A stretch of 64,000 nucleotides of DNA from Halorutilales archaeon Cl-col2-1. Lineage in GTDB: Archaea > Halobacteriota > Halobacteria > Halobacteriales > Afararchaeaceae. Positions 14,966 through 52,484 of the stretch are shown piece by piece. How positions within the stretch are numbered: position 1 is the stretch's first letter; the number at the start of each line of letters is the position of its first letter. A program made the translations under genes and the position numbers. Location: positions 320,001 through 384,000 of the forward strand of contig CP169074.1 of NCBI GenBank assembly GCA_041891055.1, read 5' to 3'. The notes under the pieces were generated by a model, which saw only the letters and a program-made list of their open reading frames with translations, was not told where the DNA came from and made no database searches.

Positions 14966-15017
14966 ACCAATTAGATAGAACCGCGAGTAACTTTATACTG
15001 TCGGCGGAAAACACTCT

Positions 15018-15468
15018 TTGACATCCTCACCCGCCTGAAGTCGGGTGAATCCCACATTGGGAATTTAAGGTTTCCAACCAACACAACCTTGTCAGGAGTT
15101 TCCCCCATTCACGGTTATATCGGCTGAAGGCTGTGCCAAACAGCCGTTACTCCTATCCTCTCGGACTCGGAGTTATCTCTGAACTTCGTTCAGAGGTTAA
15201 CGAAGCTTTGCTTCGTGATATCTTTCTACCTACCTTCTGTGGGGTTTTCACAACACACTTTTTAATGCATTTTCACAACCCTTCCGTATATTACCTCGTT
15301 ACTTTGGGCGGGTAAACCGCCTACGTAGGTTGATTGACCCATACAAAGATTCGTTGTGGTACTACTAAACTTTTACTGAAATTCCGGTATAGTCACCGAA
15401 ATAGTAAGTTGAGTACTTCGACGGATTCATCCCGCACCTAAAGGTGCGGGTATTCTCCTGTGCTATCT
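15018..15468 (-). mobile_element. Non-autonomous IS200/IS605-family (IS1341/tnpB-derived) element
   Basis: Subterminal hairpins at both ends (CCCGCACCTAAAGGTGCGGG ~15431-15450; CACCCGCCTGAAGTCGGGTG ~15028-15047). Minus-strand right end ...GAGGATGTCAA; left end follows TTAT. Retains tnpB 3' remnants (RKITPSP, DRSNGCLAQP); no full ORF. Confidence 0.8.
15174..15223. repeat. 45-nt twin-hairpin insertion with TATCT direct repeats
   Basis: TATCT (15174-15178, 15219-15223) flank CTCTGAAC-TTC-GTTCAGAG and ACGAAGC-TTT-GCTTCGT. Confidence 0.85.
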
Positions 15469-15485
15469 ATAACTGTATACAGTAC

Positions 15486-15915
15486 GTTGAGGAGAGTAAG
15501 CCCCCTTCTGTTCGTCACGGCATTCAGCTGAGCACCGACTATCGAGGCAGGGCTTACCACAGTCGGCTTGCACCCACGGGGATTCGCCGTTCCACCGTTC
15601 CCTCGCCGTCGTGTCTCGGGCGGTTAACTCGTCGACGTCTGTAAATCTCTGATTTTCAAGCATGCGAATCTTCGGATTCGCGAATGTTGAGTTGCTGTCG
15701 AGTTCGCGTCCCTCATCGATCGGGCGAGGACGTGTCGTTTCTGTTCCAGAGCCGCCGGTCTCCCGACCTCGGCTTGCTTCGTGGTTTTACTTACCACGAG
15801 CCCTCTGAGACTGAGAGTTTCTCAGCGGACGCCGAGCCGTGTGCCCTGCGGTGGGGGGACTTTCCTCGTGTGGTACGTCTTAAAAATGTACCCACGGGAG
15901 CCGTGCTTCCTCTAC
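15486..15915 (-). ncRNA. rnpB: RNase P RNA (archaeal type A-like) with two probable insertions
   Basis: Minus strand contains GAGGAAAGUCCCCCC, GGAACAGAAACG, GGAACGGCGAAUCCCC..GGUGCAAG and AACAGAAGGGGGCUUA; the 5' and 3' ends are complementary (P1). Ends approximate. Confidence 0.93.
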
Positions 15916-16029
15916 GTGTTACAAGGTAGACTCGCTACTCTTAAACGGTTTCGGGTTAGTATCCGAGACACGTGGAAACGTACCAAAAGATTATATTAAA
16001 TGCGGTGTATATTAAATACGTACTAACTC

Positions 16030-42532: not shown

Positions 42533-42604
42533 GGGCTCGTAGATCAGGGGTAGATCACTCCCTTGGCATGGGAGAGGCCCCGGGTTCAAATCCCGGCGAG
42601 TCCA
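42533..42604 (+). tRNA. tRNA-Ala(GGC)
   Basis: Acceptor GGGCTCG/CGAGTCC with G3:U70, anticodon arm CTCCC-TTGGCAT-GGGAG, T-arm GGTTCAAATCC. Confidence 0.97.
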
Positions 42605-42781: not shown

Positions 42782-43070
42782 TTGAGCGAGGACTCACAGA
42801 CCCAGAAAATCTACTGCGAAGACTGCAGCCTACATATCGACGCCGAGATCTGGGAGACCCACCTCAGAAACAGACACCCCAGAGAATACGATCCCGCCAC
42901 GTTCGGAAATCTCTAATTTCCGAGCCATCAAAATCATAGATTTTGAGACGTTCGACCTCAACGACTACCTAGACGTCGACGATAGTAGCGGAGGCGGCAA
43001 AGAAAGTGTCGACAAGTCACGCGTCCTCGAACCTTTGAGACGGCGGTCGAGTACTACCACGACCAACTCG
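42782..43070 (+). pseudogene. Small C2H2-zinc-finger ORF truncated by a twin-hairpin insertion
   Basis: AGGAGGTGA ribosome-binding site then TTG. YCEDCSLHIDAEIWETHLRNRH. The current stop (42914-42916) lies inside the insertion; removing it restores ...PATFDLNDYLDVDD. Confidence 0.6.
42899..42954. repeat. 49-nt twin-hairpin insertion with ACGTTCG direct repeats
   Basis: ACGTTCG at 42899-42905 and 42948-42954 flank CGGAAATC-TCT-AATTTCCG and TCAAAATC-ATA-GATTTTGA, with a GAGCCA-type linker. Confidence 0.88.
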
Positions 43071-52120: not shown

Positions 52121-52192
<72 letters not shown>

Positions 52193-52195
<3 letters not shown>

Positions 52196-52388
52196 AATTT
52201 CTCTGAAATTTGCACGGAACAGAATTGTAGATTCTGTGACGTTCGCTAATCTCTGATTAGCGTGCAAGCAAATCTTCGATTTGCGAACGTATGCAAATCA
52301 AAGATTTGCGAGCCTGCGAGATCAGAGATCTCGGAACGTTCGGAAATCTTCGATTTCCGAGCCAGCGAGAACGGAGTTCTCGGAACGG
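52193..52388. repeat. Array of eight triloop hairpins, 23-25 nt period
   Basis: Loop centres at ~52203, 52228, 52253, 52276, 52301, 52325, 52350 and 52374; stems differ and linkers alternate. Confidence 0.92.
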
Positions 52389-52484
52389 GAGAAAAACTCG
52401 TTCCCTCCTTGTGGGATTTTTCTATTTCTTCAGAGTCTTCCACTTTCGACGTATTTATCCAGGAACTGTGGTTACTTCCAATAG

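Follow-up and report, generated by a model that had tools for sequence, protein, structure and literature searches.

In Halorutilales archaeon Cl-col2-1, a salt-lake archaeon of hypersaline habitat with a genome of 2.06 Mb, the gene for RNase P RNA, an essential ribozyme of tRNA processing, carries two short hairpins side by side within one of its helices. The original prediction had read them as a mobile hairpin doublet tolerated in the distal part of helix P12, and had seen in such doublets a possible mechanism for RNA expansion segments. The window is the whole stretch of DNA that was analyzed, 64,000 nt in length. Positions without a contig name are those of the window, and the others refer to contigs of the genome.

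The gene was identified as an archaeal type A RNase P RNA gene of 432 nt on the minus strand (15485-15916). It matched Rfam RF00373 with 171.5 bits (E 3.9e-49), the gathering threshold being 84, over model positions 1-288 of 288, without truncation. This was the only RNase P RNA match in the genome (4 contigs, 99.47% complete). As the gene lies on the minus strand, its transcript carries the reverse complement of the letters on which the original prediction was based. In the Rfam alignment, the twin-hairpin block appeared as an unaligned insert in the P12 terminal loop, at model positions of about 139-146. The helix assignment, which had been made by eye, was therefore right, and the placement in distal P12 was confirmed. 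The core columns (the P4 strands, J11/12 with ACAGAAA, and the J15/2 region) were aligned with high posterior probability and are intact despite the insert.

The P12 arm was delimited at 15598-15736 (minus strand, RNA positions 181-319) from the Rfam alignment and from ViennaRNA folds of the RNAs of Cl-col2-1 and of G001, a genome of the same genus. A basal P12 stem and a conserved internal loop were common to both folds. The predicted tip was a fork of two hairpins in Cl-col2-1 and a simple loop in G001. The stability of the Cl-col2-1 fold was ordinary (z -1.77), with 10 of 200 shuffled sequences as stable. In the transcript, P12 would end in a fork of two short hairpins, the base of P12, the internal loop and the core regions remaining unchanged. 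No other part of haloarchaeal RNase P RNAs varies as much in length as distal P12, and the additional 46-50 nt at the tip are therefore presumably tolerated. In other archaea, the proteins contact this helix at kink-turns closer to its base, and docking of the L12 loop near P8-P9 is possible, according to PMC5499556, a source in which haloarchaea are not covered. By analogy, the P12 tip may well be free in the RNase P RNA of the present archaeon.

On the plus strand, the block consists of GACGT (15634-15638), a single C, the hairpin TGTAAATC-TCT-GATTTTCA (15640-15658), AGCAT, the hairpin GCGAATC-TTCG-GATTCGC (15664-15681), and GAATGT (15682-15687). The former hairpin has 8 stem positions with one T.T mismatch, and the latter a perfect stem of 7 bp closed by a 4-nt loop. 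Both hairpins, as well as the GACGT and GAATGT brackets, were thus found at 15634-15688 as predicted. In the RNA sense, the unit delimited by covariance model and HMM (15633-15689, minus strand) reads ACAT, hairpin A, TGC, hairpin B, ACGT. Hairpin A (15664-15681, minus strand) comes first in the RNA, as GCGAAUC-CGAA-GAUUCGC with its perfect 7 bp. Hairpin B (15640-15658, minus strand) is UGAAAAUC-AGA-GAUUUACA, with an A.A mismatch among its 8 stem positions. A lone hairpin is commonplace in this genome, where 763 perfect hairpins with a stem of at least 7 bp and a loop of 3-4 nt were counted in 2.06 Mb. The combination of two hairpins with this spacing and these brackets is beyond chance.

Units of this kind form a family dispersed over the genome. 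The consensus unit of about 48 nt comprises (G)ACGT, hairpin A with the pattern TCGnnAATC-N3-GATTnnCGA, a GCC or TGC linker, hairpin B, of which the family has few recurrent types, and G(A/G)ACGT. The original prediction had noted a likeness between the brackets in RNase P and the GAACGT linker of the array at tRNA-Glu; the alignments agree with this, GAACGT being the linker between units of the family. There were 193 perfect hairpins with an ATC-N3/4-GAT core, whereas the 63 other possible three-base cores had a median count of 5 and a maximum of 41. Neighbouring hairpin centres were 23, 24 and 25 nt apart in 41, 53 and 48 cases, i.e., in 142 pairs. A family HMM built from 36 other units, the RNase P copy being excluded, gave 89 loci at E<=1e-3 and 101 at E<=0.01 in the Cl-col2-1 genome, and no match at E<=1 in either the shuffled or the reversed genome. 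The family therefore amounts to about 90-100 units, single or in arrays such as the one behind tRNA-Glu. The 79 arrays fell into length classes of about 48-57, about 99-103 and 151-197 nt, in keeping with integer multiples of the unit. The strict hairpin-A pattern was found 33 times in Cl-col2-1, 30 times in G001 and 1-3 times in each of three other genomes, and was absent from the remaining 26 of the 31 relatives. Among 401 genomes sampled across the class it occurred in 4, and the reversed pattern, used as a control, was found nowhere.

The RNase P copy was compared with this family part by part. Its hairpin centres, at 15649 and 15672.5, are spaced by 22.5-23.5 nt, within the family range of 22-27 nt. 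Both of its cores read AATC...GATT, in agreement with the family pattern (A/G)ATC-N3/4-GAT(T/C), and its linkers in the RNA sense are those of the family, namely ACAT (one change from ACGT), TGC and ACGT. Hairpin B is of the recurrent family type CTGTAAATC...GATTTACAG. Of the canonical 9-bp stem, hairpin A lacks the two outermost pairs, and its loop has 4 nt instead of 3. The HMM built from other units matched 15634-15684 with 17.7 bits and E 0.0054 genome-wide, slightly better in the RNA-sense orientation; this modest E-value is explained by the ACAT linker, the two lost outer pairs, the extra loop base and the mismatch in hairpin B. Among 30 RNase P RNAs, the Cl-col2-1 copy was the sole significant HMM match (E 2.9e-5). 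A covariance model (R1) built from 25 other units gave 33.8 bits (E 2e-7) in sense and 25.9 bits in antisense, with a next best E of 0.4 over 29 loci (96.7 kb), a search set that lacked locus L030 of genome G007. The nearest relative of the RNase P copy, C1:1018886-1018937, has both hairpin types alike and 79% identity.

The doublet family is mobile now or was so recently. Among the 33 pairs of units at least 88% identical, 19 had unrelated flanks, and some of these flank-unrelated pairs were 100% identical between the chromosome and a 116-kb contig. Besides RNase P, four clean 48-nt presence/absence differences were observed between Cl-col2-1 and G001. Two units, in an aminotransferase gene and in an M24 peptidase gene, were present in Cl-col2-1 and absent in G001; the two others, in a Hel308-like helicase gene and at a site directly after tRNA-Glu, were present in G001 and absent in Cl-col2-1. 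Profile membership, identical units at unrelated sites and these differences between species thus bear out the mobility that had been predicted. At the two sites filled in Cl-col2-1, CGT or GACG stands on both sides of the unit, and the empty G001 alleles read CAT or GAAG. From these sequences, a target duplication of 3-4 nt appears plausible, with a proposed target that differs in both empty alleles. Downstream of tRNA-Glu in G001 (L043:2290-2480), the extra 48-nt doublet lies right behind the 3' end of the tRNA, and three successive units each start with GAGCAAA, i.e., the last bases of the tRNA followed by AA. The tRNA end was thus apparently reused as a first hairpin arm.

Most units are intergenic, 32 of 101 lying inside open frames of at least 150 aa, compared to 1725 of 2000 random segments. 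Units read in frame were inspected in 12 open frames, 5 of which received Pfam names. These hosts, each with an in-frame unit of about 16 residues, were MetRS (C1:1751583-1753664), archaeal AdoMet synthetase (C1:43751-45094), a Hel308-like helicase (C1:1725265-1727565), a class I/II aminotransferase (C1:1773752-1774960) and an M24 peptidase (C1:1620737-1622023); TnpB genes were hosts as well. In three of the five named host genes, the difference from G001 was exactly 48 nt. The 16-residue insert of MetRS is shared with G001, and a gap of 10-16 residues stands at its place in 8 of 10 other families, the remaining two having different inserts of their own. This site is therefore a variable loop of the protein.

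Several units of the family lie near tRNA genes, 5 of 43 tRNA genes having a unit within 400 nt (raw count). In the window, an array of about eight family hairpins trails tRNA-Glu (52121-52195) from its 3' end, at 52196-52400 on the plus strand. Its HMM doublets are at 52238-52290, 52293-52340 and 52336-52388, two of which were in the HMM training set. A single doublet from outside the training set (42898-42952, plus strand, HMM E 9.6e-13) was found about 290 nt downstream of tRNA-Ala (42533-42604). Between tandem genes, 15 of 19 units were oriented with transcription, a weak result that depends on a crude gene model. The 16S and 23S rRNA genes were of normal lengths, with no doublet match within them, and a blastn search of a plasmid collection with the tRNA-Glu array gave no match. 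In G001, contigs end at or within doublet arrays by tRNA genes (C45 at tRNA-Ala, and also C39 and C42), which indicates that the family fragments short-read assemblies at such loci. As short-read assemblies are interrupted by the element at tRNA and RNase P loci, it deserves attention when haloarchaeal metagenome bins are annotated.

A perfect closing stem of at least 6 bp surrounds 13% of the 79 arrays, compared to 5% of 1580 random placements, a hint that units may insert into hairpin loops. The clearest hairpin-enclosed units were observed at four TnpB paralogues, between ACCGAGAAC...GTTCTCGGT. These units are located at C1:129989-130041, 219447-219499, 1844290-1844342 and 1930863-1930915, and each has CGTTC at its two junctions. 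The first three lie in frame inside a TnpB open frame, and the fourth has the same flanking context. Among these copies, hairpin A varies by changes on both arms and hairpin B is constant.

RNase P RNA was found in all 31 genomes searched, with lengths of 292-468 nt. The G001 gene has 382 nt and corresponds nearly base for base to that of Cl-col2-1 outside P8. In the comparison with close relatives that had been proposed, G001 turned out to be 46 nt shorter at the RNase P copy: the MAFFT alignment of the two genes left 15645-15690 (minus strand, RNA 227-272) without a counterpart. The RF00373 scores were nearly equal, at 171.5 bits with the block and 170.7 bits without its 46 nt. The same 46 nt are skipped by a joint from 15643 to 15690 in a 10,198-nt contig of an independent salt-lake metagenome (run X2). 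Working RNase P genes exist naturally with and without the block, whichever the direction of the event. In another run (X4), a 172-nt contig spans 15581-15752 with about 85% identity, 26 differences and 4 gaps, a sequence which hints that a more distant relative also has an insert of like length. According to the original prediction, the same helices across distant haloarchaeal RNase P RNAs would count against a mobile insert. The search for them gave no doublet in the other 29 RNase P RNAs with the HMM (genomes of 28 other families and the congener), nor in 28 other loci with the covariance model (best E 0.4). A 21-nt P12 pattern had no record in the genome contigs and occurred at one metagenome locus (L031), which is without RNase P.

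We consider it likely that the block at 15634-15688 derives from a non-coding doublet unit of about 48 nt, now worn, belonging to a mobile family with putative (G)ACG entry. Its most probable history is an insertion before the two species split, decay in Cl-col2-1 and a deletion in G001. The four other polymorphisms between the two genomes are in register with the unit. The 46-nt difference in RNase P is off-register, as it takes five flank bases and leaves TTACAG and ACG. The sequence TTACAGACG retained in G001 corresponds to the last 9 nt of hairpin B and linker in the MAFFT alignment, and this remnant disfavors a recent insertion in Cl-col2-1. The off-register 46 nt, together with the X4 contig, favor an insertion before the species split followed by a deletion in G001. 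The unit would have entered P12 before the divergence of the two sequenced species. It would then have decayed in Cl-col2-1, with loss of two outer pairs, gain of a loop base, a mismatch and ACAT for ACGT, and the G001 lineage would have undergone an imprecise, off-register deletion of 46 nt.

The same 9-nt sequence can be read the other way round. If gene conversion or replication template switching at short homology brought a unit from elsewhere in the genome into P12, without a transposase, TTACAGACG would be the pre-existing homology that guided it, and it is indeed exactly the last 9 nt of hairpin B and linker that stand at the G001 junction. The stems of the family change on both arms together and the loops occur in both orientations, which fits a templated repair of palindromes. 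However, the four other polymorphisms are clean 48-nt units with canonical boundaries and no homologies of this length, and the X4 contig hints at an insert of the same length in a more distant relative. A copying event of this kind is thus rather unlikely as the origin of the RNase P block.

According to a further reading, P12 itself gave rise to the two hairpins as a branch native to this lineage, which may have a function, for example in a protein or tertiary contact; their likeness to the family would then be a coincidence or a convergence. Distal P12 is hypervariable in haloarchaea, and other haloarchaeal RNase P RNAs have lineage-specific inserts of 51-163 nt at the same place. For two of these, in G019 (176-nt query) and G028 (106 nt), only self-matches were found in their own genomes, and the Cl-col2-1 copy itself is diverged, its 79% identity to the nearest relative being consistent with such an origin. 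However, profiles from which the RNase P copy was excluded recognise both hairpins with their spacing, TGC linker and 3' ACGT, and hairpin B is a recurrent family type. Also, G001 and the metagenome contig do without the 46 nt, at an unchanged Rfam score in G001. Taken together, we regard a native branch as improbable.

Removal of the block from the mature RNase P RNA after transcription, in an intron-like manner or by trimming, is still harder to defend, and nothing was observed in its favour. By-eye inspection of the minimum-free-energy structures revealed no bulge-helix-bulge (two 3-nt bulges and a 4-bp helix), a cut at the helix tip would leave an RNA in two pieces, and in the precedents the P12 repeats belong to the gene, as far as the title of Vioque (1997), cited in PMC2858038, tells. 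Finally, a repeat misjoined into the RNase P gene during assembly is extremely improbable: although the contigs of run X1 (79% of sampled words) break at 15608-15659 and leave the bin 15624-15650 uncovered, such breaks are expected at short repeats in short-read graphs, a 295-nt X1 contig without differences runs from 15660, inside the block, to 15954, the X4 contig spans the block from 15581 to 15752, and the genome, at 99.47% completeness, is in 4 contigs.

The worn doublet copy remains our preferred reading of the RNase P block. The wider idea that such elements are a general source of RNA expansion segments did not fare as well, as three other haloarchaeal lineages with large P12 inserts gave it no support. 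One of them, the 131-nt P12 insert of G007 (L030:1650-1790, 141-nt query), had one weak extra match in its genome (G007:C27:67073-67155, 73% over 83 nt, E 1.8e-5), and on this sequence likeness it may be a second case of a repeat in P12.

Another part of the same RNA is expanded in this genus. The P8 tetraloop of Cl-col2-1 bears an extension of 53 nt (15778-15830, minus strand, RNA positions 87-139), which is genus-specific and folds into two hairpins. In G001, the extension is of about 50 nt, with a very different interior sequence. The segment from CR-I to J11/12 thus measures 112 nt in Cl-col2-1 and 108 nt in G001, compared to 52-61 nt in 28 other relatives, in all of which P8 is canonical, with 6 bp and a GNRA-like loop. 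A reading of the extension as a decayed doublet was not supported by the profiles, the best HMM match being 3.6 bits (E 0.84) in antisense, with no covariance model match in Cl-col2-1 or G001. It agrees with the doublet only in size (53 and about 50 nt) and in its two-hairpin shape.

Regarding the mechanism, units would enter at (G)ACG sites and leave a short sequence on both sides. Because entry at (G)ACG makes the 48 nt equal to 16 codons, tandem arrays and in-frame insertions would both follow from it. The candidate movers are a single IS200/IS605-type Y1 transposase, or template switching between copies. Only one PF01797 (Y1) gene was detected in the genome (C1:979038-979397), beside a TnpB gene as in an IS200/IS605 element, and a family-type array of six hairpins starts 10 nt downstream of it. 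The hairpin block, which together with the Y1 gene spans C1:979038-979602, is enclosed by the inverted repeat CCCCGCCC...GGGCGGGG. This 200-nt block occurs three times in the genome, the other two copies being at C1:533429-533624 and C2:51511-51706. TnpB zinc-ribbon family matches numbered 33.

The RNase P gene is also abutted directly at its 3' end by a block of 476 nt (15008-15483, no strand assigned), in place of which G001 has 13 nt. Parts of this block are like TnpB-adjacent sequences, with 91% identity over 104 nt to C1:464650-464753 and several matches of 50-70 nt elsewhere in the genome. Judging by these likenesses, it looks like a transposase-free IS-end element of PATE-like type. Its part at 15408-15461 had very high summed depth in each of the four metagenome runs, an indication of a widespread repeat.

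The two sister species provide a natural before/after pair of RNase P RNAs, which differ by the presence of about 46 nt at the P12 tip. As such a pair exists and the piece is traceable to a dispersed repeat, the way in which a peripheral RNA helix gains a branch becomes directly testable. Housekeeping enzymes of the same genome have gained 16 residues from this element, a behaviour best known from Rickettsia. More tentatively, the doublets may represent an undescribed class of archaeal 48-nt mobile elements, with (G)ACG entry and a length of 16 codons, by which the RNase P RNA would have been remodelled twice, the P12 fork being one event and the P8 extension an older, decayed copy; we hold this to be possible, though doubtful as a whole. 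If true, archaea would possess in the doublets an active source of both loop insertions in proteins and expansion segments in RNAs, able to colonise essential protein genes (MetRS, AdoMet synthetase, helicase) as well as the tips of RNA helices. A limited literature search revealed neither 48-nt twin-hairpin units nor in-frame palindromic elements described from archaea.

Among known systems, the cyanobacterial STRR reportedly lie in helix P12 and are tandem heptamers that lengthen this helix. Like the present doublet, they are short genome-wide repeats found within an RNase P RNA gene. However, they are bacterial, whereas the present case is archaeal and consists of one discrete 48-nt unit whose two separate hairpins fork the tip. 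To judge from its title as cited in PMC2858038, Vioque (1997) constitutes the cyanobacterial precedent for a repeat inside the RNase P RNA gene, and PMC2858038 describes P12 as dispensable in cyanobacteria.

The Rickettsia palindromic elements (RPE) are palindromic sequences of about 150 bp located in frame in unrelated housekeeping genes, as described in PMC10969869. The present units resemble them as small palindromic repeats without a transposase gene, which lie in frame in unrelated protein genes and add a short peptide. Compared by description, RPE are bacterial and of about 150 bp, whereas the present units are archaeal, measure 48 nt, have two independent hairpins and occur in tandem arrays.

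The REP, BIME and REPIN elements of bacteria, which RAYT (Y1) transposases mobilise, are likewise short extragenic hairpins with conserved flanking tetranucleotides, arranged in pairs or clusters and mostly intergenic. A REPIN doublet consists of two inverted REPs forming one long hairpin. In the present doublet, by contrast, the hairpins stand side by side and are unlike each other. No RAYT was identified in the Cl-col2-1 genome, which has one IS200/IS605-type Y1 transposase.

Within haloarchaea, the SMR-A of Haloquadratum walsbyi are of about 110 bp, with terminal inverted repeats and no target duplication, and they insert into near-terminal palindromes of IS605-type elements, their mode of mobilisation being given as unknown (Dyall-Smith et al., 2011; PMC3119063). 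Like SMR-A and PATE, the present units are small haloarchaeal repeats free of transposase, and they also occur inside hairpins in or beside TnpB elements. Unlike SMR-A, again compared by description, they measure 48 nt, have short direct repeats at their junctions, and are found also in host genes and in an RNA gene.
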